From assembly GCA_041749335.1 (NCBI GenBank), contig JBGTBM010000008.1, positions 18,462 to 82,461 on the forward strand: a stretch of DNA of 64,000 nucleotides. The letters are read 5' to 3'. The notes beneath the pieces are model-generated. The model had not been told where the DNA came from. It searched no databases and worked only from the letters and a program-made list of their open reading frames with translations. Origin of the DNA: Patescibacteria group bacterium (lineage in GTDB: Bacteria > Patescibacteriota > JABMPQ01). Shown here one piece after another: positions 1,012 to 61,631 of this stretch. A program made the translations under genes and the position numbers. How positions within the stretch are numbered: the stretch's first letter is position 1; every line of letters begins with the position of its first letter.

Positions 1012-4000
1012 TTGGTAATAAATCCACTTTGCAATATAAATAATCCATTTTGCAGTTTAGACAAAACAACCAGTACTATTACTGAAACCTTAATTCATAA
1101 AAACAGTGCTACCATTGTTAATGTCGATAATTCTGCAAAACCATTAATTATTACAAGGCTGCTCGATACCCCCCTTAAATACAAGCAGTCTGTTTTTTTG
1201 TTTGTGAAGGATAAAAAAGAAGCACAAAGCGCTAAATTAGGATTATCCTTCTTTAATAATTTATGCCAGGTAAATTCAACCTCTCGTATTGTACCCATAA
1301 TTGATGAAGATAATGAAAAAATTGACGCAAAAATAAATTTAAATTCAATTCTTTATAATATTATTAAAAATAATATTGGTTCATTAATACTCCCCATCGA
1401 AGCTTGTATTCAACGGACTCCTTCTTTGGCCTCATTTTCAAAATATTTAATGCACTTTGAAATAAATGATTTGCTTAATATAAATATCCTTTCGCAAAAA
1501 CTTAGCAATATTGGTTTTGAACGGCAGGATTTTGCATCAGAGCGTGGAGTTTTTTCCATTAGAGGTGATGTAATCGATATTTTTCCCTTAAATTATAACA
1601 ATCCTATTAGAATAGAATTTTTTGGTGATAAAATTGAAGCAATATACACAATTAACCCAAAAAATAAAAACAAAATTCAAGACCTGAAGAATTGTGAAAT
1701 TGTTCCAGTAAATATTATGGACAAATCTTTTGGCAGCATCTTGGATTATATTGAATTCAGCCAAAACAATAACTCAAATCAGTTATATATTTTTAATGAA
1801 CCCGCAGAACTTAAAAATTCTTTGGAATTTATTGATCCAGCCGCCTGGACCAAGTTAATGAAGCTGGCTAATAATTTTTATAAAATATATTTTGAAGATC
1901 TTCCCGCTCGCAGCGACAATGTAATAAATTTTGATTTTATAAAATCGCCAATTTATTATTACAACTTAAATAAGTTTAGAGAAGAAATACAAAATAAAAT
2001 CAATGATAAATGGCAGGTTATTTTTATTACCAAAAATAAAGACAGCATTGCCGCCATAATTAAAATTGAATCTCCGCTAATTACTTATGTAATAAATAAT
2101 GAATACTCCAAATATTTAAATGGCTTTTTTTCAAATAAACAAAAAATACTACTAATAACAGATAAGGATATTTTTGGCGTAATAATTTCTAAAAATATTA
2201 AAAAGGACATAAAATTTATTTCTGAATTAAAATCGGGAGATTACATTGTACATTATGATCACGGCATTGGCAGATTTATTGGAATGACAAAAAGAAAAAT
2301 TGATGAAGGGATGAGGGAGTTTTTTGTTTTAGAATACGCCATGGGAGATAAATTATTTTTACCGGTAGAATATTCGGAAAAATTAACAAAATATATTGGC
2401 GTTGCTCATCCAAAAATACATCGACTGCATGAGGCCAGCTGGTCGATAATAAAAAATAAAATTAAAGATAAGGCAGAAACTATTGCCAAGGAGCTTATCG
2501 AAATTTACGCCCAAAGAGAAGCTAAAAAGGGCTATAAATTTTCGCCCGATAATCAGATTATGCATGATCTGTATTCATTATTCCCCTACCGGGAAACCAA
2601 GGACCAAACCAAGGTTTGGAGAGATGTTAAAAATGATATGGAAAAATCAAATCATGAAAAACCCATGGATAGATTGGTGTGTGGCGATGTCGGCTTTGGC
2701 AAAACAGAAATTGCAATTAGGGCCGCCGTAAAAGCCGTCCAAGACAAAAAGCAGGTTGCGCTGTTGTGTCCCACTACTATTTTATCCCAGCAACATTTTG
2801 ATACATTTATCAACCGCCTTAATAAATTTAATTTAAAAATTGATGTATTGTCTCGCTTTAAAACTCCCGGTCAACAAAAAATATCAATTGAGAAAATAAA
2901 AAACGGTGAGACCGATATTATTATTGGCACCCATAGGTTGCTTTCCCAAGACATTAAATTTAAAGATCTAGGACTTTTAATTATTGACGAGGAACAAAAA
3001 TTCGGAGTTAAGCATAAAGAAAGAATCAAGTCATTTAAGGCCAATGTTGATGTACTCACTTTGACCGCCACCCCTATCCCCCGTACATTAAATTTATCTT
3101 TATCCGGATTACGGGATATTAGTACCATTGAAACGCCTCCGGAAGGAAGGCAAACCGTTAAAACATTTATTCAAAGATATGGTAATGATATTATCCAAAG
3201 CGCGATCAAAAAAGAATTAGATCGAAGTGGACAAGTCTATTATTTGCATAACAAAGTATCAACCATACAAGCTGCGGCTAAAAAAATAAGGCTGATGTTT
3301 TCCCATGCGGTAATTGATATCGCCCATGGACAGCTGCCGGAAAACAAGCTGGCAGAAGTTATGCACCGTTTTGACAAAAATCAAATTAATATATTGGTCT
3401 GTTCTTCAATTGTCGAAAATGGATTAGATCTCCCCAATGTTAATACTTTAATTGTGGACCGCTCTACTAACTTTGGCCTATCGAGCCTTTATCAATTAAG
3501 GGGCCGCATTGGCAGATCCACACAAAAAGCTTATGCTTATTTTTTATATCAAGATACCGATCTCAAAGAACAGTCTAGAAAAAGACTGCGAGCGCTTTTG
3601 GAAGCAAAAGAGCTGGGTTCAGGATTTAAGTTGGCTCTACGAGATTTAGAAATAAGAGGAGTGGGTAATATTTTAGGCAAAGAACAATCCGGCAACGTTG
3701 CGGCTATTGGATTTAATTTATATTCCCGACTGTTAAATAAAGCGGCAAGAGAAATTTCCGCCGGGAAAATTGAAAAAGAATTTGATGTTAGCATAGATTT
3801 GCCATTATCTGCTTTTATTCCCGATAATTTTATCAATAATGACAAAAAGAAAATCTATGTTTATCAAGAAATAGCCGGCCTCGAAAATATAAAAGATTTA
3901 GAATCATATAAAATAAAGCTTGCCGATAAATATAATGCCGCTCGTTTACCGCAAGAACTAATTAATTTATTTCACATCATTGAAATAAAGATATTGTGCC

Positions 4001-4500: not shown

Positions 4501-7461
4501 TTAAACAACTAAATTTAAGACCTTGTCCGGTACAAATATTACTTTTTTAATTTCTTGGCGATTAATAAAATTTTTTACTTTGTTGCTTTGTTCGGCCAAT
4601 TTGACTGCATTTTCTTGAGAAATTCCTCTGTTAATCTTGATAGTGTCCCGTACTCTGCCATTTACTTGAATAATTAAATTTATTTGCTCTTCGGAAAGAA
4701 TTTTTGAATTATATTTAGGCCAATTTTCTTTCAAAATACTTTCTTGATTACCAATTTTTTCCCAAAGCTCTTCTGCCATGTGCGGCGCAAACGGTGATAG
4801 TAAAATTAAAAATATTTTCATAGCTCCGACCGGCAGCTTTTCTTGTTGGCTAGCCTGGTTAATAAAGATCATCATTTGAGAAATGGCCGTATTAAAATTC
4901 ATATTTTCAATATCTTCGCCTACCTTTTTAATCGTCTGATGCAAAAGAATTGATAAACTTTTGTTTACTCTGGCGCAGCTCCCGCCGCACTTAATCATTT
5001 CTTTTTCCTGATAAACAACCCATATCTTTTCTAAAAATCTTCTGATGCCCTTTATGCCATCCATACTCCAAGGTATCGCTTCCGAAAAAGGACCCATAAA
5101 TAATTCGTAAAGTCGCAGGGTATCCGCGCCCCCGCCTTCTTCATTTTGCACAATCTCGTCAGGATTGATTACGTTGCCAAAAGACTTGCTCATCTTGCGT
5201 CCGTCTTCGGCGAGAACCATTCCATGAGAAGTACGTCGAGCATATGGTTCCGGAGTACCCACTAATCCTTGATCATATAAAAATTTGTGCCAAAAGCGGG
5301 AATATAAAAGATGCAATGTGGTGTGTTCCATGCCGCCATTATATAAATCCACCGGCATCCAGTATTGCATTTTCCGCTCATCCGCAAAAGCTTTGAGATT
5401 TTTGGGATCGCAATATCTTAAAAAATACCAGCTCGATCCCGCCCAATTAGGCATTGTGTCAGTTTCTCTTTTCGCATCTGAACCGCATCGCGGACATTTA
5501 ACTTTAACCCAATCTTTAATAGTAGCCAAGGGTGATTCTCCGGTATCGGTTGGTTCGTAATTTTTTACATCCGGCAAACGAACCGGCAGATCTTTTTGCG
5601 GAACGGGTACGGTGCCACAAGTTTCACAATGAATTATAGGTATCGGCTCCCCCCAATAATGCTGCCGTGAAAATATCCAATCTCTCAACTTATAATTAAT
5701 CGCTTTGCGGCCATAGTTATTTTTTTCCAGCCATTGAGTTATTTTCTTTTTAGCAGCGAAAGTTTCAAGACCGTCAATAATTTTAGAATTAACGGCTATT
5801 CCCTCTCCGGCGAAAGCTTTATCTTTTGAAGCAACCTTGGATTGCACCACTGTTTTAATTTTCTGCTTATATTTTTTGGCAAAATCCCAATCTCGCTGAT
5901 CGTGCCCCGGCACTGCCATAATCGCACCGGTACCATAAGTGCTCAAAACATAATCTGCCACAAAAACCGAAATCTTTTCTCCGTTTACCGGATTAACAGC
6001 CTTAAATCCCCTTATCTCTACCCCTGTTTTTTCTTTCTGCAATTCGGTTCTTTCTAAATCTGATTTTGTTTTCGCTTTTTTAACATATTTTTCCACCTCT
6101 GAATAATTAGTAATCCGCACTTGATAGTTTTTTATAATTTCATGTTCGGGAGCCACTACCATATAAGTTGCGCCATAGAGCGTATCCGGACGAGTAGTAA
6201 ATATCTTAAGCTGTTCCAAACTGTGTTCTAAGACCAGCGGCTCTAATTTTCCTAAAAAATGTTTAGCTGTTCCCGTTCCGTCGATTATCTTTCCTCCAAT
6301 CGCATCCTTGATCTTATCCGCCTGCTCCGATGGTATCTTATGATCTTTTATATCCCGCAAAATCCTAATTTTAATTATCTTTTTGCAGATTTTTTCAAAA
6401 TTATATCGCCAGTTAAAAGTTTTTACAAAAGGCCTTTTGTGATTATCTAAAAATTCCGGAGTGACAAATCCTCCCACCGATACATATTTATAAATCGGCC
6501 GCTTTAAGCCTTCAAGCACTTTCATTGCTACCACCGACCCCAGACTATGCGCTATCAAAATAGTATTTTCGTCAAATTTTACATTTTTTTTCACGAACTC
6601 AATTTGTTCCAAAATATCAGGATTGTTAGTGTTGGGAAGCTGGGGAATTTGAACCCGGTGCCCTCTTTTTTCCAGTTCAGCTTTTAGCCAGCAGTAAAAA
6701 GAATTTTCCTTAGTCGCGCCATAACCGTGTAAAATTACATAATTAAATTTCTGATCAATTTCAAAATTAACTTCCGCCCCTTCGGATCTGCCAATCCAAT
6801 TTATCTGCTGCGCCTTAATCTTCTCTAGATAATCAACTGTGTCTAAATCATCTACTAGGCGGTCAGCATAAGCAGTTATTTTAAGCATCCACTGTTCCTT
6901 TTCTCGCTTTTCTACTTCTCCCTGGCACCGTTCACACCGTCCGTCTACCACCTCTTCGTTGGCCAACACTATTTTACAACTGCGGCACCAATTAACCGGC
7001 ATTTTATGTTTATAAGCCAATCCTTGCTCAAAAAATTTCAAAAATATCCATTGTGTCCATTGGTAATAATCAGGATCAGTGGTATCGATTTCCCGCGACC
7101 AATCATAAGATATCCCCAATGATTTTAACTGCTTTTTAAAAATCGCAATATTTTTTTGGGTAGCGATCTTGGGATGAATTTTGTGTTTAATCGCATAATT
7201 TTCCGTAGGTAAACCAAAAGCGTCCCACCCGATTGGATACATAACATTGAATCCCCGCAGGCGGTACATCCGAGCCATCACATCCAGAGCAGTATAAGAC
7301 CGCACATGGCCGACATGCAGACCTGCTCCCGAAGGATAAGGAAATTCAACCAATATATATTTCTTGGGTTTTTTAGAATAATCCTCAGCGACAAACACAT
7401 TATCTTTTTCCCATTGCTTTTGCCATTTAACTTCAATTTTTTGAGGACAATATTTTTGCAT
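4501..7461 (-). CDS. leuS: leucyl-tRNA synthetase carrying an inserted alpha/beta-hydrolase-like domain
   Basis: HIGH-type motif PYPSGAGLHVGHVRSY and KMSKS are present. Editing-domain motifs TTRPDTLYGATYMVVAPEH and GTGAIMAVPGHDQRDWDFA are intact. Real start is probably MQKYCPQ at 7461; the 48-nt N-terminal extension in the ORF track is rejected. Confidence 0.9.
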   Translation of the reverse strand: MQKYCPQKIEVKWQKQWEKDNVFVAEDYSKKPKKYILVEFPYPSGAGLHVGHVRSYTALDVMARMYRLRGFNVMYPIGWDAFGLPTENYAIKHKIHPKIATQKNIAIFKKQLKSLGISYDWSREIDTTDPDYYQWTQWIFLKFFEQGLAYKHKMPVNWCRSCKIVLANEEVVDGRCERCQGEVEKREKEQWMLKITAYADRLVDDLDTVDYLEKIKAQQINWIGRSEGAEVNFEIDQKFNYVILHGYGATKENSFYCWLKAELEKRGHRVQIPQLPNTNNPDILEQIEFVKKNVKFDENTILIAHSLGSVVAMKVLEGLKRPIYKYVSVGGFVTPEFLDNHKRPFVKTFNWRYNFEKICKKIIKIRILRDIKDHKIPSEQADKIKDAIGGKIIDGTGTAKHFLGKLEPLVLEHSLEQLKIFTTRPDTLYGATYMVVAPEHEIIKNYQVRITNYSEVEKYVKKAKTKSDLERTELQKEKTGVEIRGFKAVNPVNGEKISVFVADYVLSTYGTGAIMAVPGHDQRDWDFAKKYKQKIKTVVQSKVASKDKAFAGEGIAVNSKIIDGLETFAAKKKITQWLEKNNYGRKAINYKLRDWIFSRQHYWGEPIPIIHCETCGTVPVPQKDLPVRLPDVKNYEPTDTGESPLATIKDWVKVKCPRCGSDAKRETDTMPNWAGSSWYFLRYCDPKNLKAFADERKMQYWMPVDLYNGGMEHTTLHLLYSRFWHKFLYDQGLVGTPEPYARRTSHGMVLAEDGRKMSKSFGNVINPDEIVQNEEGGGADTLRLYELFMGPFSEAIPWSMDGIKGIRRFLEKIWVVYQEKEMIKCGGSCARVNKSLSILLHQTIKKVGEDIENMNFNTAISQMMIFINQASQQEKLPVGAMKIFLILLSPFAPHMAEELWEKIGNQESILKENWPKYNSKILSEEQINLIIQVNGRVRDTIKINRGISQENAVKLAEQSNKVKNFINRQEIKKVIFVPDKVLNLVV

Positions 7462-7555
7462 TTTTTTTCTTAGTTTTCGCTTCCTGATCACATTCAATTG
7501 TAAAATCATCTCGCCAATATTTTTAAAAAACTCATTTCAACTAAAATCACGGCAT

Positions 7556-16055: not shown

Positions 16056-16183
16056 TTTTGTGTTGTTTTCAATGAACGATCAAAATACTATAATATATTG
16101 TTATCTTGTTGTCAATCTTTTTTGGTAATGTGCACACACATTTTGCACTGTCTGCTATCCTCAACACGCTATGACAAAATCAT

Positions 16184-16252
16184 AAAAATTTAATCTCTGA
16201 ACCTAGTCAAAGGGTTAAATTTTTATAGCCTTCGACAGGCTCAGGCAATAAT
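16184..16252. repeat. intergenic repeat module X (copy 1)
   Basis: aaaaatttaatctctgaacct.gtc.aagggttaaattttatagccttcgac..gctcaggcaataat. It recurs at 16347-16413 and 58804-58873, with degenerate copies at 18262-18325 and 61632-61690. Contains stem gtcgaagg/ccttcgac. Confidence 0.7.
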
Positions 16253-16346
16253 TTAATTTTACGTTACTGTAAATTCAGGTGATTTGTCGCCAATATTTGT
16301 AATGTTATTATTTTATTTCTTTATCCAAGTTAATTAACTAAATAAT

Positions 16347-16413
16347 AAAATTTAATCCCCGGACCGTAGAAGAGTTAAAGTTTACATAGCCTTCAACTGC
16401 GCTCAAACTATAA
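16347..16413. repeat. intergenic repeat module X (copy 2, diverged)
   Basis: aaaatttaatccccggaccgtagaagagttaaagtttacatagccttcaactgcgctcaaactataa aligns to the 16184 copy. Confidence 0.6.
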
Positions 16414-16437
16414 AATAGTTATACTAAATTTCCTAGT

Positions 16438-16595
16438 CCTCCTCCCCTCAGATGAGGGGAGGTGTTCCGATGTTACATCGGAACAGAGGGGTGCTGAAAA
16501 GATCTACGCCACCTTTTTAATTTTTTCCAAAGAAAAATGAACTGATTAATCTAACAAAGCAGGTTGAGAACCTGTCCTACTTTCTTCATTCTTCA
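16438..16595 (+). repeat. intergenic repeat module Y (copy A1): two conserved stem-loops plus a CU-rich tail; candidate structured RNA or regulatory cassette
   Basis: Contains cctcccctc-agat-gaggggagg and tgttccgatg-tta-catcggaaca hairpins, then gaggggtgctgaaaagatctac ... caggttgagaacctg ... tactttcttcattcttca. Near-identical copies at 18329-18487 and 61701-61877. Confidence 0.7.
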
Positions 16596-16804
16596 TCCTC
16601 CTATTTTATTTGTTTGTATCTTGTATCTTTTTTTGTTTCTTGTCATATTGTATCTCGTTTATTTTTTCCAAAAACAAGATAAAATTCTGCCCCACTTTAT
16701 TCATTATTCTTTATTCATTATTCAATTGCTCTAAATGTTTAGATAAAAAAACACCCCGCTTAATAACGAGGTATTTTGAATCAGTTTAATCTGTAAATCC
16801 TTGC

Positions 16805-18064
16805 TTATTTCTTTTTCTTTTTCTTTAAGAAGGCCGCGATGCCCACTACCAAACCTAAAGATAATACCGCAATTACAACTTTCCAGATGGTATTGCCGGG
16901 CAGTTCGGGGATAATTTCCTCTTCTTGTGGTTCAAGCTGTGCAAATGTAAAATTACTTCCAGAAGTATTTACAGCTTGCCTTAAATAATCATTACCACCT
17001 GCATTCTCTTCATAAATCACTACTGCACGGCTAGAAGAATCTGCATCAACAGAAACTAATCCATAGGTCGATCCAGAACTTTGGTCTACAGTAATATCAG
17101 CCAATACCGCACCGGTTTCATTCGTTTTAATCAATTCAACCTGAGGCGCTGAAGCTCCATCTGCATTTGAAAATGCTATTGCGGGACCGGTAGAAATAGA
17201 GGTAGCTTCTAAATCACCAACATTATCAGATAACGACTTGACTGTAGCTGCAGTAGCATATGTTGTTGCAGAATTAGCTGTAAATTGTAATAAATCCTTA
17301 TTTGTAGTTTCTTGGATAACTATAACGGGAAGATTATAGGTACTATCTTGCATTGCTATATCCATTTTGACTGGCATATCGGTAGTAGAAATTGTAATAA
17401 CATTAGTAGGTAAACCCGTCAGGTTATCATAGCCTAATTCAAAATTTCCTGTAACAGAGTCCTTCCCTATAAAATATGTATACGCTCTAGTAGGATCTTG
17501 CCAAGCCACTACTCCCGGATCTTTATATAACATATCTCCAGTAAGATAGTTTAGCTGAATACCTGTTCCATCATTCTTTATAGTTAATACTCTCACAGCT
17601 CCTGAAGTTCCTGCAGATGCACAATCAATGTATACTATTCTTGGATAAACCTCTCCTGGAGCAGTATATTCTGTCACAGCCCAAGCTGGACGATCTGTAA
17701 TTAAGGTTGGAGCATACGATACTATAGAAGTATCTAAATCCAAAGTTGCCAATCTTATATATGGGATTGTTCCAAGAATATTTTTATTTACATAATATAT
17801 TGCCAATTTATTGACACCCGAAAGTTTATGAACTGCTCTTACTTGTGTATAAGGCTGGCTGATGATGTTATCATAGAATGTAATTGTACCAGAAACATTA
17901 GTAATACAATCAATAGGATTATTCTCTCCAGCACGATTAAAACAAGTGTATGTGTCATTTCCCGATACGTCAGAAGCCATATATGTATAATCTGCTGCGC
18001 TCACACTGCCCGCCACGGCAAACATTGCCGCGAAAGCAAACAATGCAATGATTAGTTTTTTCAT
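16805..18064 (-). CDS. secreted/surface-anchored protein, paralog A
   Basis: Signal peptide MKKLIIALFAFAAMFAVAGSVSA. The body is rich in T/S/N/G, suggesting beta structure. C-terminus is EEEIIPELPGNTIWKVVIAVLSLGLVVGIAAFLKKKKKK. Confidence 0.8.
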   Translation of the reverse strand: MKKLIIALFAFAAMFAVAGSVSAADYTYMASDVSGNDTYTCFNRAGENNPIDCITNVSGTITFYDNIISQPYTQVRAVHKLSGVNKLAIYYVNKNILGTIPYIRLATLDLDTSIVSYAPTLITDRPAWAVTEYTAPGEVYPRIVYIDCASAGTSGAVRVLTIKNDGTGIQLNYLTGDMLYKDPGVVAWQDPTRAYTYFIGKDSVTGNFELGYDNLTGLPTNVITISTTDMPVKMDIAMQDSTYNLPVIVIQETTNKDLLQFTANSATTYATAATVKSLSDNVGDLEATSISTGPAIAFSNADGASAPQVELIKTNETGAVLADITVDQSSGSTYGLVSVDADSSSRAVVIYEENAGGNDYLRQAVNTSGSNFTFAQLEPQEEEIIPELPGNTIWKVVIAVLSLGLVVGIAAFLKKKKKK

Positions 18065-18108
18065 TATTTTTTAATTAATTATTATTTTTATAATCTTTAT
18101 ATAGTTTA

Positions 18109-18119
18109 CCCCCCCCCCC
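18109..18119. repeat. homopolymeric C11 (G11 on the coding strand) tract in the putative promoter spacer of paralog A
   Basis: 11 consecutive C in an otherwise AT-rich region, 45-55 nt upstream of the ATG at 18064. It lies between a TTGACA (minus strand, 18134-18129) and an AT-rich -10-like TAAACT (18108-18103); the spacer is 20 nt. Confidence 0.6.
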
Positions 18120-18183
18120 GACTGCCTTTGTCAAAGCGAGGTGTGGATAAGATTATTATTCAATTTACATTTAATGCCTTTAC

Positions 18184-18212
18184 CGTAGGGACAGAACAGT
18201 GTTCTGTCCCTA
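18184..18212. promoter_or_regulatory. perfect 14-1-14 palindrome gtagggacagaaca-g-tgttctgtccctac upstream of paralog A
   Basis: Perfect inverted repeat 120 nt upstream of the start codon. A related perfect palindrome lies at 18520-18547, with imperfect relatives at 60096-60123 and 61907-61936. Confidence 0.5.
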
Positions 18213-18328
18213 CAAAAAAATAATCCCTTAGCATGATCGAATGATAATTTTTTTGTCTAATCTTCGACCCGTCTGTCATAGCCTGGCATTGGCGGGCAGG
18301 CAGGCTCAGACAATATTTCTTACGTAAT

Positions 18329-18487
18329 CCTCCTCCTCTCAGATGAGGGGAGGTGTTCCGATGTTACATCGGGACAGAGGGGTGCTGAAAAGATCTACAC
18401 CACTTTTTTAATTTTTTTCCAAAGAAAAATAAACTTATTAATCTAAAAAGGCAGGTTGAGAACCTGTCCTACTTTCTTCATTCTTCA
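18329..18487 (+). repeat. intergenic repeat module Y (copy A2)
   Basis: cctcctctc-agat-gaggggagg and tgttccgatg-tta-catcgggaca stem-loops; each has one T-G position that is wobble-compatible only if read from the plus strand. Then gaggggtgctgaaaagatctac...caggttgagaacctg...tactttcttcattcttca. Confidence 0.7.
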
Positions 18488-18519
18488 AAAATTAAACAAG
18501 CGTTGATTTTTTTATTAGC

Positions 18520-18547
18520 GTAGGGACAACTCGCGAGTTGTCCCTAC
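18520..18547. promoter_or_regulatory. perfect 14+14 palindrome gtagggacaactcg/cgagttgtccctac
   Basis: Perfect inverted repeat between the tgt 3' end and module Y. It shares the half-site gtagggaca with the 18184 palindrome. Confidence 0.5.
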
Positions 18548-32297: not shown

Positions 32298-32753
32298 ATG
32301 AAAAAGTATGCAATTAATAAGAAAGTGAGATTTGATTATGAAATCCTGGAAAAAATCGAGGCGGGTTTAGTATTGGCGGGGACTGAAGTTAAATCAATAA
32401 GAGCTGGCAATATCAGTTTAAAAGGCTCATACGTTACCTTAAAATCATCCGGAAAAAATCCTGAAGCCTGGCTGATAAATGCTCACGTTTCTCCCTACAA
32501 ACCGGCCGGAGATCAACCCGGTTATGATCCGGAAAGATCCCGTAAATTACTGCTGAAAAAAAAGGAAATAAATTACCTAATCGGCAAGAAAAAAGAACAA
32601 GGCTTGACATTAGTGCCATTATCGGTGTATAATAGAAGATCGAAAATTAAAGTTGAAATTGGTTTGGCTCGCGGCAAAAAAAGGTACGAAAAACGAGAAG
32701 ATATCAAAAAAAGAGAAGCTAATAGAAAAATCAGGCGAGCGTTAAAAAATTAA
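32298..32753 (+). CDS. smpB: SsrA-binding protein
   Basis: MKKYAINKKVRFDYEILEKIEAGLVLAGTEVKSIRAGNISLKGSYV and a basic C-terminal tail; 151 aa. Confidence 0.9.
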   Translation: MKKYAINKKVRFDYEILEKIEAGLVLAGTEVKSIRAGNISLKGSYVTLKSSGKNPEAWLINAHVSPYKPAGDQPGYDPERSRKLLLKKKEINYLIGKKKEQGLTLVPLSVYNRRSKIKVEIGLARGKKRYEKREDIKKREANRKIRRALKN

Positions 32754-32834: not shown

Positions 32835-33232
32835 GGGGATGACAGGCTTCGATAGAAATTTCAAAATGTATTATTGCAAACTGAGGCGCGCGATCCTCAT
32901 AAAACCTTGCGCAAAGTTATAAGTGCAAACTTACTAACTAAGGTAAAAGACAATGTTAAAGCTTTTGCTTCTAGCATGAGTCTTTCACCGATTGCAGCAG
33001 CATAAATCCTGTTGCCATTCGCCTTTTTCCGCCTGAGGGAGAAGAGTCGGGTGTCATATTTTCAGGCTAGATATTTTCTCCCGGCCCGAGAATTTATCGA
33101 AACCATATCGGCCTAAGCCTTATAAGTTTTTGTCTATTTTATACTTATCTGGCTGACAAAATAAATAGACTACGTTTGTAGACAATTTTATATTTAAATT
33201 TCTAGACGTGGGTTCAATTCCCACCATCTCCA
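32835..33232 (+). ncRNA. ssrA: tmRNA (ssrA); CCA not encoded
   Basis: 5' GGGGAUGACAGGCUUCGAUAG matches the tmRNA 5' consensus. The 3' end has a T-arm gtggg-ttcaatt-cccac, and the acceptor strand catctcc pairs with the 5' ggggatg through a G3-U wobble (alanine identity). It lies immediately downstream of smpB. A candidate tag ORF ends ...PIAAA-stop at 33003-33005. Confidence 0.75.
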
Positions 33233-33358
33233 CTTGATATAATCAATCTCTTTGGGATTTACTTATGCAATAAAATACATGAGATTAAATGAAGATGGTG
33301 GCATAACAATCAGAAATAATTACAGCAATTTATAATGCCCAAAATTTAAAATTTTTAA

Positions 33359-36318: not shown

Positions 36319-37608
36319 TTATAATGTTCCATTTCTAATTTTGTCTAAAACCTTACGAGCATCATCTTCCGAAATTGATTTCTTTTTTCCCAAAATCTGA
36401 ATCAAGCCCTTCACTACTTGGGGAAACTCTTCTTCAGATGCTCCCACCAAAAGGGCAAAATTGGTAGCATGTAGTCTCATATGTCCTTCGGTAAAACGCT
36501 TATTGGGATCTACCAAGGCTGAAATTGCGGCATAATTTTGCGCCAACGCCGCAGCTCCCATCACCTCTCTCAGTTCCCGCGCTGTTTTTACCTTCATAAT
36601 TTCCAGCGAAATTGTCGCTATCGGATGCATAATTGCTCCACCAATGATTCCGATATCGATCGGAGCCTTAAATACTCCAATCAAATCGCCTTCAGACATT
36701 CTCCATTTAGAAATCGCCAGCTCTTTAGATTCAAGCGCGTAAGTATTGATCAATCCCATCACAGCCCGAGTATCATTGCCGGTAGCAGTAGCTATCGCAA
36801 TCAATGAATTCGCCATACCCTTATTATGAGTCACCGCTCTAAACAAATTTTGTTCTGCAAAGCGCGATGCAATTTCTATTCTACGGCCCATCATCTGATC
36901 ATATGTTTTTAATCTGATTTTACACTCCACCATTTTGAGAGTGTAATTGGTAAGAATACCCATAATCATTTCGTATCCGGTATCACTGGCGATACGCGCT
37001 CCCAAAAACTCGCAAATTGAAACTACTTTATTTGCGCCCATTGCGTCAACCGTATCAGCCGCCACATGCAATACGACACCGGTGTTTTCATCATCAATAC
37101 GATGCAAATAATTTTTCACCTCAATTGATTTTACTCCGCCGCCACGCTCAACATCCGCTTGAGCAATGTCCAAATTCGCCATAGCGATCAAATCCAGCTT
37201 ATGACTATCCAAATAAGCCTCAAATTGCTGAATCTTTTCTGGAGGAACGATTATCAAAATCTGTCCGACTGATTCGTGACTGCCAATTGATTGGGTTTCA
37301 ATGTACCCATTATGCTTTCGAAAAACACTGCCGGCTCGATTAGCTGCCGCTACCACTGATGTTTCTTCGGTCGCATAAGGTATGTAGCGGTCGGTGCCAT
37401 TAATTGGTAAACACACAATTCCTAAAGGGATTTGGAAATATCCCAAACAATTCTCAATTGCTTTCTCTCCCCATTCAACGGAAATTTGATCTCGGCGTAA
37501 CATTTCAGCATGAGCGGGCGTAATAGCGCCCATTGATGTCAATCTTACTAAACGATCGCGCCGCGATGTCAATTTACTAAATCCACTAAAGGGATGTCTG
37601 CTATTCAT
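36319..37608 (-). CDS. HMG-CoA reductase (class II-like)
   Basis: EETSVVAAANRAG, DAMGANKV and GGAIMH blocks match the HMGR fold; 429 aa; the gene is GC-enriched. Confidence 0.75.
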   Translation of the reverse strand: MNSRHPFSGFSKLTSRRDRLVRLTSMGAITPAHAEMLRRDQISVEWGEKAIENCLGYFQIPLGIVCLPINGTDRYIPYATEETSVVAAANRAGSVFRKHNGYIETQSIGSHESVGQILIIVPPEKIQQFEAYLDSHKLDLIAMANLDIAQADVERGGGVKSIEVKNYLHRIDDENTGVVLHVAADTVDAMGANKVVSICEFLGARIASDTGYEMIMGILTNYTLKMVECKIRLKTYDQMMGRRIEIASRFAEQNLFRAVTHNKGMANSLIAIATATGNDTRAVMGLINTYALESKELAISKWRMSEGDLIGVFKAPIDIGIIGGAIMHPIATISLEIMKVKTARELREVMGAAALAQNYAAISALVDPNKRFTEGHMRLHATNFALLVGASEEEFPQVVKGLIQILGKKKSISEDDARKVLDKIRNGTL

Positions 37609-42092: not shown

Positions 42093-42557
42093 TTATGGTT
42101 TGAGCGTAAAGCCAATGATATCTTTTGCTAAAACATAGCTTCCTCTAAGCACAGACGCCTGAATTTCATATTTACCCTCAAAAAAGCCGGAGCAAGATGA
42201 ACATTGGGGCAGCTGCTTTTCAATTTTAATTGTCTCTTCGGCATCTTTACTAAGTTTTATTATTTTTTTTTCGTTAAAATAATTTACCCCAAAATCATTT
42301 TTCATTCCTTCAATCAACACCATTAATTTTCCAGAATCCGAATTACTGCTTATCTTAATTTCCAGCTGCGCCATATCATTCGAAAAATATACCTCTTGAT
42401 CCAGATGTGAAAAAATATCTACCTTTTCCTGGATATTTTCCGGGTAGGCTAAAGAAGGCTTATCGTCCCCATTTCGACTTAATACTATCTGCCAAACCGC
42501 AACAATTAACACAACCCCCAAAAGCACCCCAATAATATATTTACCGTATTTGCTCAT
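42093..42557 (-). CDS. hypothetical membrane-anchored protein
   Basis: N-terminal TM helix, 154 aa; no recognised motif. Confidence 0.4.
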   Translation of the reverse strand: MSKYGKYIIGVLLGVVLIVAVWQIVLSRNGDDKPSLAYPENIQEKVDIFSHLDQEVYFSNDMAQLEIKISSNSDSGKLMVLIEGMKNDFGVNYFNEKKIIKLSKDAEETIKIEKQLPQCSSCSGFFEGKYEIQASVLRGSYVLAKDIIGFTLKP

Positions 42558-42562: not shown

Positions 42563-43621
42563 TTAATATTTTCTTTTTTCCAGAAAGTTAGCTAAACCAA
42601 TAAAAACTTTTTTATCATAGACATTTAATATTTTTGACAGCCTAACAACTCTTTTGGCCTTTCCAATATATTTATCAATTTCGCTGTCAACTCGCTGCAG
42701 GGCGCCTGAACGTTTTATTATGTTTTTGAACTCAACAATCTGCTCTCTGGTCACTTTTTTATTTCCTAAAAGTTTTAGAAGATAATCACGTGATATTTTT
42801 CCTGACTTCAGCGCGTAATATATCAATAGTGTAATTTTTCCCTCTTTAATATCAGAATCGGTTGGCTTACCAATCTCTCGCCTCTTGCCGAACATTCCCA
42901 ATACATCGTCTTTTAATTGGAAAGCCAATCCTAATGGCACCGATAAATTTTTATAAAATTCCTGCTGGCTATTTCGAGCTCCCGCTAAGGTAGCGCCCAA
43001 TATTAGCGGCTTTTGCGCGGTATAATCGGATGTTTTCCTCATCATAACACTAACAATGCGATCTTTATCTGAAATATTTTTAACTTCACTCAAAAAAATA
43101 TCTTCCGCTTGTCCGATCATTATTTCGTTCTTCATTTCCTGATATAGCTTAAATACTCGGCGGTTATTTAAATTAAAAACCAATTCATTGGACCAGGTGC
43201 TGAGAATATCACCCGCCAAAACCGCTAAGCCTAAACCGAAATCACTGCTGCTACCTCGCCAATTTTTACTCTGGTGCCATTCCTGCAACATAATGTGAAA
43301 AGTGGGTTTATTTCTTCTTAAATTGGAAAAATCAATTATATCATCATGAATCAAAGCAAAACTATGAAATATTTCCAGTGCCATCCCCAAGCGCATGATT
43401 TTTTCATTATTATTGCCTCCGCTAACTTTGTATCCCATATACGCTAGAAACGGACGAATTCTTTTACCGCCCGCCAATATATATTCAGACAAATATTGGA
43501 CTAAATCCGTATATTCCGGACTGATAACCGCCGCTTCCTTCTTTTTGACCTCAAAATAAGCCTCTAATCTCTTATCAAAGGTTCCTTTGAAATTGACTAT
43601 TTTATTAATAAAATCCTTCAT
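42563..43621 (-). CDS. polyprenyl diphosphate synthase (trans-isoprenyl diphosphate synthase family)
   Basis: First Asp-rich motif LIHDDIID and second DDVLG; 352 aa. Confidence 0.8.
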   Translation of the reverse strand: MKDFINKIVNFKGTFDKRLEAYFEVKKKEAAVISPEYTDLVQYLSEYILAGGKRIRPFLAYMGYKVSGGNNNEKIMRLGMALEIFHSFALIHDDIIDFSNLRRNKPTFHIMLQEWHQSKNWRGSSSDFGLGLAVLAGDILSTWSNELVFNLNNRRVFKLYQEMKNEIMIGQAEDIFLSEVKNISDKDRIVSVMMRKTSDYTAQKPLILGATLAGARNSQQEFYKNLSVPLGLAFQLKDDVLGMFGKRREIGKPTDSDIKEGKITLLIYYALKSGKISRDYLLKLLGNKKVTREQIVEFKNIIKRSGALQRVDSEIDKYIGKAKRVVRLSKILNVYDKKVFIGLANFLEKRKY

Positions 43622-52676: not shown

Positions 52677-53261
52677 TTATAAATTAATATTTTCCTGCTT
52701 CAATTCGTCCCGCAGTTTTTCTTTAGCGCGGTTAAGCCAAGTAGCAATAGTGCCAGCCGGCTTTTTTAAAATAAAAGAAATTTCCTGATAATTCTTATCC
52801 TCAAAAAATCTCAACATAATAACTTCCCGATATTTTTTATTGAGCCGACTTATAACGCTTTTAATTGCTTCTCGCGCTTCTTTGGCCTTAAGATTTTTTT
52901 CAATATCCAAATCGGCGGCCAGCCTTTCAAATATTTCGTCATCAATGTCCAAAACTAATCCTTTGGACTTAGCATGGCTTTTTCTAAAATTACTAATAGT
53001 TTCATTGCGAGTAATACGGTAAATCCAGGTTGAAAATTTATACCGGCTGTCAAAATCGTTCAAGTTACGATAAGTTTTAATAAAAACTTCCTGCAAGATA
53101 TCCTCGCTCTCCTGCCAACTGACATTGCTTATCCTTTGAATATATTTAAGCAGCTTATCCTGATATCTTTGCATAATACATACAAAATAATCCTGATTCT
53201 TCAACGTCAGTGCGATTAGTTCTTCGTCAGTTTTCTTATCACAGTTAAAAATATCGGACAT
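52677..53261 (-). CDS. ECF-type sigma-70 family factor
   Basis: Region 2 (EDILQEVFIKTYRNLNDFD...FSTWIYRITRNETISNFR) and region 4 (YREVIMLRFFEDKNYQEISFILKKPAGTIATWLNRAKEKL). Confidence 0.8.
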   Translation of the reverse strand: MSDIFNCDKKTDEELIALTLKNQDYFVCIMQRYQDKLLKYIQRISNVSWQESEDILQEVFIKTYRNLNDFDSRYKFSTWIYRITRNETISNFRKSHAKSKGLVLDIDDEIFERLAADLDIEKNLKAKEAREAIKSVISRLNKKYREVIMLRFFEDKNYQEISFILKKPAGTIATWLNRAKEKLRDELKQENINL

Positions 53262-53329
53262 AATGCGCTTTACTTATATATACGCTAAATACTATATTTT
53301 CTTTCGCTGCCTGTAAATTAAATATCGCC

Positions 53330-53656
53330 TTGCTTTTTATTTCCATTAATATTATAACAAAGAGAAATTCAGGGAGGAAAATTGTGGAAAATAAAGAAAC
53401 GGACGCAGACACAGATAGTTTTTATAATCTGACCATGAAACATAAAATTATCTGGATTATCTTTGCACCTTTGACTCTTTTTAGAATCAATAACGAACTT
53501 TGCCTGTTTTGGGTTATTGGCAGCTTGATGGCATTCATGGCGCTAAATATTTATACCCGCATTGATAAGCCCACGATGTTTTTATTTTCTTACCTGGCAG
53601 CGATGTTGATCGTTCTTTTGACTATCTTAATTCATAAAAATCGGCAAAAAAGTTAA
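53330..53656 (+). CDS. hypothetical small membrane protein
   Basis: 108 aa, three hydrophobic segments; a plus-strand terminator hairpin (aaagagg..cctcttt plus T-run) follows at 53660-53690. Confidence 0.3.
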   Translation: MLFISINIITKRNSGRKIVENKETDADTDSFYNLTMKHKIIWIIFAPLTLFRINNELCLFWVIGSLMAFMALNIYTRIDKPTMFLFSYLAAMLIVLLTILIHKNRQKS

Positions 53657-53759
53657 AGAGGTCCAATTATGGCCTCTTTTTTAATTGGAAATAACCTAAT
53701 AATTTAGCTCATAAAATAATCGCGTATTAATTAACAAATCCGGTTTTATATAAAATAAA

Positions 53760-53792
53760 AAAAGCCCGCTTATAATTACGGGCTTTTTATCC
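53760..53792. terminator. bidirectional terminator
   Basis: aaaaaaagcccg-cttataattac-gggcttttt: an 8-bp stem flanked by an A-run and a T-run. Confidence 0.5.
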
Positions 53793-53804
53793 AAAATTGT
53801 TTAT

Positions 53805-55913
53805 TTACTGAATCACGCCGTCTACTACCTTTATCACATTGCTGCGAGTTACCTGTTTGGCTTGATCCACGGTACACACGCTGTAATAATAGGTCCCGGT
53901 TGAAGTTGCCTTGACCTCGGTATCAACATAGCTTAACTCGTCCCGCGATGCTGCTTTGATATAGCCGTCGGCAGGATAAGTCGGTGCCGGGTTGGTTTGC
54001 GATCTTACCACTTTATAATAGATAAAATCAAGGTCATTATTTTTAGTCCAGCTTAGATATACTCCGTCCGCTTTTACTTGCGCGGATAAAGCTGAAGCCG
54101 CTGGGAGAGTATTTTCATCGATCGGAGTAACCGCCACATCATTGCTATAAGCAGATACGCTGCTGCCATCGTAAGCTCCTACTCTGATATGCAAGGGCTT
54201 ATTAGGAAGACCGCTCCAAGTATAGCTTCTGGTATCAGGCGTCACTTTTTGAACATAAGTTGCTCCGGGGAAGCTGGGATTAGCTGATTCGGAAACCAAA
54301 AGCGCAAATGCTTTAGGCGCGTCGCCGGTAGCATCCCAAAAGATATTCACTCCATTCGCCGTAGCTTGGGCTGAAGCCGTTACCGAAGCGCTAACAGCCT
54401 CTTCTTCTTTTACTTGAGCTGTCACCTGCGCAACATTGCCGCAAATTACTTCTTTGGCGGTATTGACCGCACAGACTCGGTAATAATATGCCTGACCTCC
54501 CTTAGCATCCGCATCAACCATGGCGGTAGTATTGATATCGGTAATCACTTTAATATATCCATCGTCGGGATATTTTAGATTAGGATTGGTTTCTGAACGA
54601 ACGACTTTGTAATAAGTTAATTCGCCATTAAATTTAACCCAAGATAAATGCACGCCGTCAGACTTGGCAACCACGCTTAGTGATAAACTATCGGCTGATG
54701 TTTCTTCCTGTTTATCACCTTCATCGGCTTCATCTTCCTTGGTATATTTAACTTTAACTTCCAAAATAGTCTCATTGCCATCCTTATTTACCGCTTTAAC
54801 TTTAATAGTATTATCGCCCTCGCTCAAAGTAAGCGCTTTTTCAAAACTGCCATCTTTATTTTCTACTTCCGCACCATTAACCGTGACTATCGCTTCCGGA
54901 TCGGTTACTCCTTTCAATACCAGATTAGAATTCTTAACTTCCGTACCGCTTAAGGGTTCGGTTACTTTAAGCATTGGCCCTTCGGTAGATTTTTTTTCAT
55001 AGACGGCATAGTCCTTGTCCTGATCTTTTTCAATGTTCCACAAGTACCAATCTTTAGCCAATTTTTCTTCAGACAAATCCTTTATTTCAATTTTTTCTTG
55101 GGCGGTATCTACGATTCCCTCTTTGCCTGCAGCGACGGTTTTGGAAGTTACTACCGTATTTTCCTGCTTTAATTCAATAGAAACTTGGCTATCCAGCACC
55201 GGCACTGATATGTCTTTTGTTCCCTCAACGCCGAATGCGGTGCCTCGCGCCGTTACGACGCTATCGCCGGCTGCTACCTGATAACTGGTGCCTTCTTTGA
55301 CGCGATGATAACTGGTTCCGGCCAACTGATTAAGCGTTACTTTAGTATCGGTCAAAGCGCCAATTTCCATTTCACTCGCTTCATCCACGCGGGCAATACT
55401 GCCATCGGTAAAATCAATGATCGCTTTGGACTTGCTGTCTGTTCTAACGCGCATACCTTCCTTCAACAGCATATCGGTTTCAGCTGCAATCCACTCGCTA
55501 TCGCCGTCTTGGTATTGCACCTCGCCTTGTTTAAAGCTCAAAAGCGCGCTCGCGCCCGATGCCACCTTGCGATCAGTATCTTCGCCGGGCTTTCCCATAA
55601 ACCAAACTGAAGTAAAAATAGCCAGCAAAAGAACCAGAGTCGCCGGTACCATTACTTTCCAGTTTTTCCACCAGGCGGTTTTTTTGACAGGCTGCTCTAT
55701 TATTTGCATATTTTTTTCCTTTCTTTGTGTTAAATAATTTTTATAAAGCTTGTCTCCTAATTGCGCTTTAAAATTTTCGTCGGGTAAATAATTTTTTCGT
55801 GCTTGCTTTAAATTTTCAGCAACGGCAAATAATTCTTGCGCTTGGCCGCCGCCGGCCTTGATTTCAGGATTATCTATCGCCTCTATTAAATTTTTAATCT
55901 CTTTTTTATTCAT
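53805..55913 (-). CDS. anti-sigma factor-like membrane protein with extracytoplasmic FecR-like and two FN3/Ig-like domains
   Basis: N-terminal cytoplasmic region, then TM helix VMVPATLVLLLAIFTSVWFMG. FecR-like block AIIDFTDGSIARVDEASEMEIGALTD. Two repeats of about 90 aa each ending YYKVVRS(E/Q)TNP..YP.DGYIK. The start overlaps the ECF sigma gene stop. Confidence 0.65.
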   Translation of the reverse strand: MNKKEIKNLIEAIDNPEIKAGGGQAQELFAVAENLKQARKNYLPDENFKAQLGDKLYKNYLTQRKEKNMQIIEQPVKKTAWWKNWKVMVPATLVLLLAIFTSVWFMGKPGEDTDRKVASGASALLSFKQGEVQYQDGDSEWIAAETDMLLKEGMRVRTDSKSKAIIDFTDGSIARVDEASEMEIGALTDTKVTLNQLAGTSYHRVKEGTSYQVAAGDSVVTARGTAFGVEGTKDISVPVLDSQVSIELKQENTVVTSKTVAAGKEGIVDTAQEKIEIKDLSEEKLAKDWYLWNIEKDQDKDYAVYEKKSTEGPMLKVTEPLSGTEVKNSNLVLKGVTDPEAIVTVNGAEVENKDGSFEKALTLSEGDNTIKVKAVNKDGNETILEVKVKYTKEDEADEGDKQEETSADSLSLSVVAKSDGVHLSWVKFNGELTYYKVVRSETNPNLKYPDDGYIKVITDINTTAMVDADAKGGQAYYYRVCAVNTAKEVICGNVAQVTAQVKEEEAVSASVTASAQATANGVNIFWDATGDAPKAFALLVSESANPSFPGATYVQKVTPDTRSYTWSGLPNKPLHIRVGAYDGSSVSAYSNDVAVTPIDENTLPAASALSAQVKADGVYLSWTKNNDLDFIYYKVVRSQTNPAPTYPADGYIKAASRDELSYVDTEVKATSTGTYYYSVCTVDQAKQVTRSNVIKVVDGVIQ

Positions 55914-56460
55914 TTTCCTTAATAATCTCCTTTAATTTCTTGAGCGCGCGAAATATTTTCACTCCCAGATGATTATAGCCGATACCCAGTATTTCCGAAA
56001 TTTCTTCATTGCCCAAATCTTGAAAAAATTTAAGTTCTAAAATTTGCCTGCTTTCCTCCGGCATTTTTTCCAAATTTTTGGCGATTTCGTCTTTACGAGC
56101 ATAGTCTTCCGCTTGATCGCTTTTTCCATCCACTAGCTGATGTTCGTAATTTAAGAGATCAACATTTTTTCTTTTGCCCATTCGGCGGTAATAATCAGTT
56201 AAATTATTAATGGCGATACGATACAGCCAAGCGGAAAAGCGGATATTGTCCCGCGCTTCAAAATCTTGCAGGCCCAGCACCGCTTTTTCAAAAGTCTGCG
56301 ATGTTAAATCCTGCGCTTCTTCTTTATTTTGCACCCTGCTCAAAAGATAGCCGTAAATGCGGGGCATATAATATTCATAAAGCTTATCAAAAGCGCTGTA
56401 ATCGTTTTGCGCCTTGATCACCAGCTCCTGCTCTTCATTTTTGTCTAAATAATCGCTCAA
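55906..56460 (-). CDS. ECF-type sigma-70 family factor
   Basis: Region 2 (EAQDLTSQTFEKAVLGLQDF...FSAWLYRIAINNLTDYYRR) and region 4 (ILELKFFQDLGNEEISEILGIGYNHLGVKIFRALKKL). Confidence 0.8.
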   Translation of the reverse strand: MSDYLDKNEEQELVIKAQNDYSAFDKLYEYYMPRIYGYLLSRVQNKEEAQDLTSQTFEKAVLGLQDFEARDNIRFSAWLYRIAINNLTDYYRRMGKRKNVDLLNYEHQLVDGKSDQAEDYARKDEIAKNLEKMPEESRQILELKFFQDLGNEEISEILGIGYNHLGVKIFRALKKLKEIIKENE

Positions 56461-58873: not shown

Positions 58874-58898
58874 CTATCTTCACGTTGTTATAAAATTA

Positions 58899-59345
58899 CA
58901 TGGGATTGTTTCGTCCCGACGTAACGTTGGGACTCGTAATGGCGTAAATATAGAACGTCATTGCGAACGACCAGAGGGAGTGAAGCAATCTCGTCTTATA
59001 CAATATCTTCAAATAAATCTTTCCAATCCGGATTAAATGAATTAATTAACTTCATTTTGTTTTTCCTTGAACCGGCTTTTATCTGTTTCTCTCTGGTAAT
59101 TGCATTATAAGGATCAGAAAAAGCTTCATAATAAACCAACTTGTCAATATTATATCTTGCGGTAAAACTTCTTTTTATAAATTTATTTTTATGTTCAAAT
59201 ATTCTTTTTGCTAAATTACTGCTTACTCCCGTATATAAAACTTTATTATTGTTATTAGTCATTATATAAACAATATATAATTTTTCTTCCATTAAATAAT
59301 GTAATAAATAAACATGGGATTGCTTCGCTTCGCTCGCAATGACGT
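58899..59345 (-). mobile_element. GIY-YIG mini-cassette bracketed by inverted repeats
   Basis: 16-bp inverted repeats acgtcattgcgaacga (58955-58970) and tcgctcgcaatgacgt (59330-59345; 15/16 match) flank the GIY-YIG ORF. A direct repeat catgggattg(t/c)ttcg sits at 58899-58913 and 59313-59327. Confidence 0.5.
58996..59292 (-). CDS. stand-alone GIY-YIG nuclease-domain protein
   Basis: LYIVYIMTNNNNKVLYTGVSSNLAKRIFEHKN (GIY-YIG); 98 aa. Confidence 0.7.
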   Translation of the reverse strand: MEEKLYIVYIMTNNNNKVLYTGVSSNLAKRIFEHKNKFIKRSFTARYNIDKLVYYEAFSDPYNAITREKQIKAGSRKNKMKLINSFNPDWKDLFEDIV

Positions 59346-60190: not shown

Positions 60191-60202
60191 TTCAATCATT
60201 GC

Positions 60203-61456
60203 TTATTTCTTTTTCTTCTTCATGAAAGCGGCAATACCGACTACTAAGCCTAGAGCCAAAACTGCGATTAATACTTTCCATAAGGAATTGGAAGGAAGTT
60301 CAGGAATAGACTCGCCCTCTTCTTGCTCTTGATAAAGCGGAGTTGGAGCTCCGGCATTAATAGTTGAATATAGTCCGTCTAGAATAGAAATATCACCAGT
60401 TGAGTAGGTAAGAACTGACTGGTTGATGGAATTAAATCCGGCATAAACAATCGAGTTAATATAATCGGTGTCAGAATTAGTAATATTTGTAGTTGAAACC
60501 GCCGAACCGTCTGATTTCAAACTGATATCCTGTTCCAAATAGTTAGTATCTTGATCAACAATAGTAACCATTACCTGTGCGGTATTAGCCGCATTAGTTA
60601 TAGCATCAAATTTCATAGCAGCTGCAACCGTACCAACATTTGTTAATTGATCAACATCATAAACCGAACCATCGAAATCAGCTTCTTTAAAAATATTGCC
60701 TTCAGCGGTTCCGGTCTGATAAACGCTAGTAACTCTGCCATTATCCATGCCAATCGCAACGATGCCGGAAATGTTAGAAGTTAAAGTATTATCAACTACA
60801 ACTGAGTCATATGTAGCAGTATCCGTGGAATAATTAAAACCTGTTGAATATACATCATCTAATGAATCCATAAAGTATACCGTATAAGCAATTTGATCGC
60901 CACCGGTCAAATAGACATCATGTACTGATGTTGTATCTGAATATTCTATTACATCATAACCCCATGCGTCAGATACATTGCTAATTAAATTTAACTGGCT
61001 TGGACCTTCTGAAGAATTCGCAAGGAAAACCGGATATCCCGCCGAATCAATACTGTCTGACATTACTGCGTCCAATGCATCACTATTCGCAACAACATCT
61101 GATATTTCTCTTGGAGCTACTGATGGACCTAGAATTTTATAGTTTACAACATGTAAATCATTCGTAGCATCAATATAGGCATACCACGCATAATCAGTAC
61201 TCTGATATGTAATTCCAACCAAACTATCTACATCAGTTTCCACGCTTTCGTAAACTGTTGTGGTCGCATCCTTAACAATAAGATCAATATTGCCGGCATC
61301 TGTTAAAACTGCGGAAACGATATAGGCGTTAGTGGCATCATATATATCCGTATCACTATCTATAATAGCTTCGTCTGAAATCTCAGTTGCACTAACACTA
61401 CCCGCAACTGCAAACATTGCCGCGAAGGCAAATAATGCAATAATTAGTTTTTTCAT
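60203..61456 (-). CDS. secreted/surface-anchored protein, paralog B
   Basis: The first 23 aa (MKKLIIALFAFAAMFAVAGSVSA) are identical to paralog A, with near-identical nucleotides. C-terminus QEQEEGESIPELPSNSLWKVLIAVLALGLVVGIAAFMKKKKK. Confidence 0.8.
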   Translation of the reverse strand: MKKLIIALFAFAAMFAVAGSVSATEISDEAIIDSDTDIYDATNAYIVSAVLTDAGNIDLIVKDATTTVYESVETDVDSLVGITYQSTDYAWYAYIDATNDLHVVNYKILGPSVAPREISDVVANSDALDAVMSDSIDSAGYPVFLANSSEGPSQLNLISNVSDAWGYDVIEYSDTTSVHDVYLTGGDQIAYTVYFMDSLDDVYSTGFNYSTDTATYDSVVVDNTLTSNISGIVAIGMDNGRVTSVYQTGTAEGNIFKEADFDGSVYDVDQLTNVGTVAAAMKFDAITNAANTAQVMVTIVDQDTNYLEQDISLKSDGSAVSTTNITNSDTDYINSIVYAGFNSINQSVLTYSTGDISILDGLYSTINAGAPTPLYQEQEEGESIPELPSNSLWKVLIAVLALGLVVGIAAFMKKKKK

Positions 61457-61631
61457 TATTTTTTAGTTAATTAATTTTTTTTAATAAGATCTGGTTGGTA
61501 AGTCGACCGCGAGATTACCAAATGCTAAAAAAGAGTAATTTCTTTTTTATTAGATAATTATAGCACAAATAAGCTATTTTAAAAAGATATTTATCCACAA
61601 AGTGCTTTTTCTTGTTTTTTTATTATTTTAC

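Follow-up and report, generated by a model that had tools for sequence, protein, structure and literature searches.

Repeat-slippage phase variation is textbook in mucosal pathogens and mycoplasmas. In N. meningitidis, the major surface-protein gene porA carries a poly-G tract of 9–11 nt between its −35 and −10 elements (PMC3639595; PMC7864442); tracts of 11G, 10G and 9G give high, medium and low expression, respectively, and one-base steps shift the spacer from 17 nt (PMC3639595). In T. pallidum, tp0126 and the tpr genes (E, G, J and L) have poly-G tracts of 7–11 nt in or next to the promoters of putative surface genes, with permissive lengths of ≤8 G for the tpr genes and a 17-nt spacer for tp0126. 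For this uncultivable organism, the test of the effect combined fragment-length analysis with GFP reporters in E. coli (PMC7864442). The vlp genes of M. hyorhinis form a multigene family of surface lipoproteins that is switched ON and OFF by indels in a promoter poly-A tract (PMC10502178). G/C runs of at least 7 nt are the accepted cut-off for candidate phase-variable repeats (PMC6321876). We came across no account of phase variation for Patescibacteria, CPR or Saccharibacteria in the literature that we searched, which is not proof of absence.

Here, we describe a G homopolymer in the putative promoter of a predicted surface-protein gene, paralog A, in the window, by which we mean the whole 64-kb stretch of DNA that was analyzed. 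The locus comprises the following features, given in the direction of transcription:

18306..18547, minus strand: intergenic repeat of ~240 nt between tgt and paralog A
18452-18466, minus strand: terminator-like hairpin between tgt and paralog A, inside the ~240-nt repeat
18185..18213, minus strand: perfect 13-bp hairpin GTAGGGACAGAAC/GTTCTGTCCCTAC, ~50 nt upstream of the −35 hexamer
18129..18134, minus strand: perfect −35 hexamer TTGACA
18109..18128, minus strand: 20-nt spacer, consisting of AAGGCAGTC (9 nt) and G11
18109..18119, minus strand: homopolymer, C11 on the forward strand and G11 on the gene strand, the candidate slippage tract
18103..18108, minus strand: candidate −10 hexamer TAAACT (T1, A2 and T6 present), followed by ATATAAAG
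18094..18098, minus strand: inferred transcription start zone, purines 5–9 nt past the −10 hexamer (sigma-70 geometry)
18065..18093, minus strand: AT-rich leader that lacks a Shine-Dalgarno sequence and is conserved in paralog B and P0002
16805..18064, minus strand: paralog A gene, 419 aa, intact ORF, predicted surface protein
16748..16777, minus strand: terminator-like hairpin and T-run after paralog A

The tract lies 45–55 nt upstream of the paralog A start codon (ATG at 18064) between the flanking sequences TTGACAAAGGCAGTC and TAAACTATATAAAG, and the minus strand reads cgcTTTGACA-aaggcagtc-G11-TAAACT-atataaagattataaaaataataattaattaaaaaata-ATG. It is the only G/C run of at least 7 nt in the 64-kb window (37.1% G+C), for which base composition predicts 0.0023 runs of at least 11 nt. 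A/T runs of at least 7 nt number 120, the longest being an A8 and a T9 (42263-42271), and G11 exceeds every one of them in length. G/C runs of at least 8 nt were rare throughout 83 unrelated or related loci (686 kb) whose homopolymers were counted, and no orthologous tract was found among them. The sole other G/C run of at least 9 nt in the CPR loci fetched is a G9 (L046, 8587-8595) from a Falkowbacteria (CPR) genome, where it follows a 399-aa ORF in a hairpin-rich intergenic region. As the only tract of its kind in 64 kb, G11 gives no hint of a larger set of phase-variable genes, and the 64-kb window contains neither mutS nor mutL. G11 lies within the slippage length range of at least 7 G/C (PMC6321876), and its position in a putative promoter makes paralog A a candidate transcriptional phase-variable gene by this cut-off.

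Poly-G is a known artefact of two-colour instruments, and one sample supports the sequence, so that a false signal from two-colour Illumina sequencing, or from its assembly, has to be considered. Artefactual poly-G, however, stands at read ends and is much longer than 11 nt, whereas the present run is short, internal to a 105.9-kb contig and bordered on both flanks by unique sequence that continues into the gene. A second, independent assembly (Logan, SRR28170473, locus L001), made with a different assembler, also contains G11, and we regard an artefact as very improbable. Over 9 kb, the Logan contigs L001 and L003 match the window at 100% identity and hence come from the same population; as both assemblies thus represent one population, their agreement on G11 says nothing about the stability of the tract.

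Housekeeping genes surround the locus (tgt, RecO, LemA, several aminoacyl-tRNA synthetases, SmpB and tmRNA). The encoded Tgt is closest, at 68% identity, to one from a genome bin of the Parcubacteria group; other good matches are from Patescibacteria. This relative has the block RecO-LemA-TPM-DUF11-tgt-ProRS-M16 in synteny and nothing but a small GNAT gene separating tgt from ProRS, while the same slot of the window holds the repeat, paralog A and a Ser/Thr kinase. Inserted together with the kinase into an otherwise syntenic block, paralog A is accessory, lineage-specific DNA. Among the remaining genes of the window we noted a leucyl-tRNA synthetase (4501-7509, minus strand) with a serine-hydrolase or alpha-beta-hydrolase domain (residues ~257-410) inserted before the editing domain, as well as HMG-CoA reductase and polyprenyl synthetase (36319-37608 and 42563-43621, minus strand), which are mevalonate-pathway/isoprenoid genes in a CPR genome.

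Because terminator-like and perfect hairpins separate paralog A from tgt, the gene needs a promoter of its own; the hairpin at 18452-18466 would insulate it against tgt read-through, and the terminator-like hairpin with its T-run downstream implies that the unit is monocistronic. The perfect hairpins, which lack a T-run on the 3′ side and are thus not canonical terminators, form a family that flanks the surface-gene cassettes (18520-18547, 18185-18213, ~61909-61936 and ~60096-60123). They share the stem GTAGGGACA/TGTCCCTAC with differing loops, and the stem at the paralog B locus is GTAGAGACA/TGTCTTTAC with a G-T wobble. The intergenic repeat (160–260 nt, with several strong hairpins inside) occurs three times, after tgt (18306-18547), after paralog A (16434-16595) and after a third paralog (61678-61936), two copies being 94% identical. 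It stands in the same place in a related sample (SRR19071534, L085 ~3480-3560). Near the locus, the single Rfam match, to an sRNA, falls on the repeat and stays below threshold, at 25 bits where the gathering score is 80. Since one hairpin is not conserved in copy B, the repeat is perhaps not an RNA gene but a mobile or duplicated element in decay.

Within 200 nt upstream of paralog A, the best promoter candidate is TTGACA-20-TAAACT. The window has 33 TTGACA sequences on its two strands, and one of them would by chance fall on the gene strand 0–12 nt upstream of the tract with a probability of ~0.003. TAAACT agrees with the −10 consensus at 4/6 positions and ends 38 nt before the ATG, within the usual range of this genome (23–45 nt). 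A 20-nt spacer is strongly sub-optimal for sigma-70 promoters, and the assembled G11 allele, three steps off the optimum, is therefore predicted to be low or OFF. Shortening the run in silico to G7–G9 yields a 10/12 match with a spacer of 16–18 nt (17 nt for G8, 18 nt for G9).

Three other routes to a switch or a start were also considered. A translational switch or upstream ORF is excluded, as an in-frame TAA stands 9 nt before the paralog A ATG; the sole upstream ATG is directly followed by TAA. A G-quadruplex is ruled out, since a single run of 11 G cannot supply four G-runs. Because the window encodes two ECF-type sigma factors, we also sought an ECF-type promoter (GAAC...CGT) at paralog A and by eye found none. 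The two sigma genes lie with a 702-aa anti-sigma-like protein (FecR and glucodextranase-B domains) at 52677-56460 on the minus strand, a regulatory investment that is unusual for a small genome.

Other genes of the window have candidate −35/−10 promoters with 16–18-nt spacers whose −10 hexamers end 23–45 nt before the start. The kinase gene has TTGACA (16115)-17-TATAGT ending 43 nt before its ATG, and the receiver-domain gene a 12/12 TTGACA (50373)-17-TATAAT ending 34 nt before its ATG. Together with three other genes, these two have 11–12/12 matches 34–45 nt upstream, and several further genes have 10–11/12 matches with 16–17-nt spacers, ending 23–45 nt before the start. The leaders behind these promoters are usually AT-rich and without a Shine-Dalgarno sequence. 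Across the window, 50 sites match at 10/12 positions or better (16–18-nt spacer), six of which (6/50) fall in the 80 nt before start codons, which make up 2.8% of positions (~4-fold enrichment). A perfect 12/12 TTGACA-18-TATAAT inside the 3′ part of smpB (32604-32633, plus strand) is probably the ssrA promoter; the tmRNA gene (32835-33235) lies ~200 nt past it.

Every sequence statement of the original prediction on this region is thereby confirmed. It had claimed a C11 run in an AT-rich genome 45–55 nt from the paralog A ATG, with which both the coordinates and the G+C content agree, and a perfect TTGACA and a TAAACT flanking the tract on the minus strand, which lie at 18134..18129 and 18108..18103. 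Its argument that the 20-nt spacer is off-optimum, and that loss of 2–3 G would restore 17–18 nt, is arithmetically correct, and the genome does use 16–18 nt.

We read G11 as a promoter-spacer slippage switch of the porA or tp0126 kind, now at a low or OFF length, and assign this reading a probability of about 0.5. G11 would be the variable part of the spacer in a sigma-70-type promoter, TTGACA-N20-TAAACT, that drives paralog A, and slippage during replication would alter the spacer length. With a tract of G8 or G9 (17 or 18 nt), the resulting 10/12 promoter would be among the better consensus matches of the window and paralog A would be ON, whereas at G11 (20 nt) the hexamers would be out of register and transcription low or OFF. 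Given that the assembled length is predicted to be low or OFF, ON cells would make up a minority of the population. We infer that the hexamers are a real promoter, that the tract varies in length and that expression follows this length. The observation itself is real and non-random; the switch interpretation is unproven, but it is mechanistically sound and fits every feature that the sequence allows to be tested.

The main competitor of the slippage switch emerges from a comparison with paralog B and other members of the family, for which the following features are needed:

60203..61456, minus strand: paralog B, 417 aa, tract-free, sharing the signal peptide and anchor of paralog A
61557..61565, minus strand: extended −10 of paralog B, TGCTATAAT, conserved in P0002; TGGTATAAT in L084
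61495..61521, minus strand: family leader hairpin (TTGGTAA...GGTCGAC TTACCAA), absent from paralog A

Paralogs A and B have a nearly identical signal peptide and anchor (the first 23 residues are identical), and their leader and signal peptide share 88% nucleotide identity, while the alignable part of the body is ~31% identical. A and B thus show the Vlp-type pattern, in which leader and signal peptide are conserved and the mature protein diverges, but not a tract in the promoter of each paralog. Upstream DNA was readable for paralog B, P0002 (L002), two tandem L084 genes (ENA contig), P0012 (L085) and P0018 (L086), and in these six cases it contains no G/C run of at least 6 nt and no A/T run of at least 9 nt. 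Instead, the four full-length members among them (B, P0002 and the two L084 genes) have an extended −10 (TGnTATAAT), a conserved leader hairpin and the same AT-rich leader (window 61495-61565; L002 60-120; L084 1400-1480 and 2880-2965). The extended −10, which ends 88–111 nt before the ATG, is the usual promoter of the family. The hairpin, with GGTCGAC in its loop and a compensatory change in the outer pair (T-A to A-T), may act as a regulatory element or as one that stabilises the mRNA. At L084 (1509-1531), a 407-aa family gene has ATT in place of its neighbours' ATG (ATT AAA AAA ATA TTA ATT...), which may be a rare start codon or may leave the gene translationally silenced.

Paralog A keeps approximately the last 30 nt of the family leader, and homology with B resumes ~30 nt before the ATG. 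Further upstream, from −85 to −33, its alignments with B, P0002 and L084 are no better than chance, 337, 392 and 233 of 500 shuffles, respectively, reaching the observed score, compared to 0, 2 and 5 of 500 when B, P0002 and L084 are aligned with each other over the same segment; MAFFT places TTTGACAAAGGCAGTC and G11 as an insertion in paralog A. We therefore reject the TTGACA/G11 segment as a diverged family leader hairpin and regard the promoter module of paralog A (−35, tract and −10) as a replacement. Since the tract is also unique to paralog A, it is a one-off event rather than a family-wide design.

Such a history would also suit a tract that is incidental, that is, a neutral slippage product or junction scar in a replaced or crippled promoter whose length is not selected as a switch, with paralog A silent, weakly expressed or expressed from another start. 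Besides the dissimilar, inserted segment, it is favoured by the uniqueness of the tract among family and anchor-sharing genes with readable upstream DNA, by the location of paralog A in a lineage-specific insertion, and by the assembled 20-nt spacer, a length at which sigma-70 promoters are non-functional and for which a decayed promoter is an equally possible explanation. Chance, however, would have to place two hexamers on either side of the tract at the ATG distance usual in this genome (joint chance ~1e-4 to 1e-3). A/T runs are far commoner in the window and yet never longer than 9 nt, so neutral run expansion is not rampant. Moreover, the 419-codon ORF is intact and the codon differences between A and B in the signal peptide and anchor are all synonymous, which points to purifying selection rather than recent gene conversion. 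We therefore consider an incidental tract unlikely, albeit a serious contender. The strongest arguments for the slippage switch are the joint improbability of the geometry, the genome-typical position and the intact ORF under selection.

A further possibility is that the tract is transcribed from a start further upstream, the G run being the 3′ arm of a 5′-UTR hairpin with CCACACCUCGCUUU. This hairpin would be the counterpart of the family leader hairpin, and tract length would tune RNA structure or stability instead of promoter spacing. RNA folding does pair the G run with the C/U-rich stretch just upstream (~11 pairs, many of them G-U), four other members have their conserved hairpin at a similar distance from the ATG and are transcribed from the predicted extended −10, and an AATAAT stands at about −96 to −91 of paralog A. 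This AATAAT, however, lacks the TG extension, has a −35 with only 2/6 matches and is not among the best census candidates, and the paralog A segment is not homologous to the family hairpin. The stem is G-U-rich, the fold z-score being driven by the separate perfect hairpin at 18185-18213, and the perfect TTGACA would be left unexplained. A transcribed tract thus appears quite improbable to us.

The product of paralog A is predicted to be anchored at the surface by a signal peptide, a C-terminal membrane helix and a lysine tail. The signal peptide is of type I, with a predicted cleavage site between MKKLIIALFAFAAMFAVAGSVSA and AD (AGSVSA/AD; an AxA site), and the C-terminus consists of a IPELPGNTIWKV motif (PELPGN-W-KV), the membrane helix and a KKKKKK tail. 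No Pfam family matched paralog A, and its AlphaFold model, in which the body is all-beta, has a mean pLDDT of 42, a confidence too low to search for similar folds. In layout the tail is like a three-part sorting signal; by curated cut-offs it is neither a PEF-CTERM (16.9 bits, cut-off 23) nor an LPXTG member (14.2 bits, cut-off 15.9), and no sortase-like gene was found in the window. The anchor of A and B is found again in a third, larger protein (62018 to beyond 63997). The C-terminal module, [IV]PELPxNxxWK[VI] with a membrane helix and a K-rich tail, recurs in ~20 otherwise unrelated secreted proteins (16805-16930, 60203-60330 and 62090-62250 on the minus strand of the window; proteins P0005-P0023), including the subtilase-like P0023. 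The module may represent a sorting signal of this CPR lineage that has yet to be described.

Very few proteins make up the family. Apart from paralogs A and B themselves, word-indexed searches across 5.8 billion protein clusters recovered a single member, P0002 (33% identical, from another sample), and an exhaustive HMMER search of 1.84 billion cluster representatives returned 21 proteins, among which only P0005 and P0007 are full-length members besides A and B; most of the others share only the C-terminal anchor. A scan with the family alignment found no relatives in GTDB representative genomes and none in JGI metagenomes among the matches listed, which were filled by the common MKKLIIAL pattern. 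A degenerate DNA pattern for the signal peptide likewise gave none in JGI metagenomes. Across the 5.8 billion protein clusters, the GTDB representatives and the JGI matches listed, a second population with paralog A was not found. Within the window, a 1.5-kb region downstream of B (58670-60202) contains a gene for a 98-aa GIY-YIG nuclease (58996..59292, minus strand) and has several segments in common with the stretch that separates A from the kinase gene (16056-16804). The A and B loci look like diverged segmental duplicates. A heliorhodopsin gene (56784-57599, plus strand; Pfam E = 1.6e-97) adjoins the surface-protein cluster of this CPR genome.

With respect to the gene family, the original prediction also fared well: the DNA upstream of paralog B (60203..61456, minus strand) has no tract, as it had asserted, and its surface-protein label for paralog A is in line with the predicted signal peptide and C-terminal membrane anchor, which agree. 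Its reading of the tract as a contingency locus is borne out in part, in that the features testable from sequence fit.

If the slippage reading is correct, it would place a known mechanism in a phylum where it has not previously been described; if the tract proves invariant in length, what is left is a curious homopolymer within a promoter that has been rearranged. An attached life on host cells is assumed for CPR bacteria, and stochastic switching of a surface protein would for this reason bear on attachment, detachment and phage pressure. We tentatively go one step further, with somewhat less than even confidence, and suggest that the locus could be the first repeat-driven contingency locus in CPR, at which an ultra-small, host-dependent bacterium would use spacer slippage to bet-hedge the expression of a recently gained orphan surface protein, which could serve in attachment or as a phage receptor and carries an undescribed [IV]PELPxNxxWK-TM-KKKK signal.

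Set against the described systems, paralog A resembles vlp as a member of a family whose bodies diverge behind a conserved 5′ leader and signal peptide, in a small-genome, host-dependent bacterium. Every vlp gene, however, has a poly-A tract, while here a poly-G tract is found at one paralog only, and the Vlp products are lipoproteins, in contrast to the type I signal peptide and C-terminal anchor of the paralog A family. With T. pallidum it shares a poly-G tract at the promoter of a putative surface-protein gene; there, many paralogs and other genes have tracts that are conserved across subspecies, compared to one gene among those examined here. The variation of porA and its effect are demonstrated in Proteobacteria, while those of paralog A are proposed from its sequence; paralog A encodes an unrelated protein in a CPR genome, and the window offers no set of further repeat loci to go with the tract. 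The two also differ in register, 11G giving the 17-nt optimum at porA and a 20-nt spacer, predicted to be low or OFF, at paralog A. What paralog A has in common with porA is the arrangement itself, a G homopolymer within the spacer of a promoter, which for paralog A is a predicted one.
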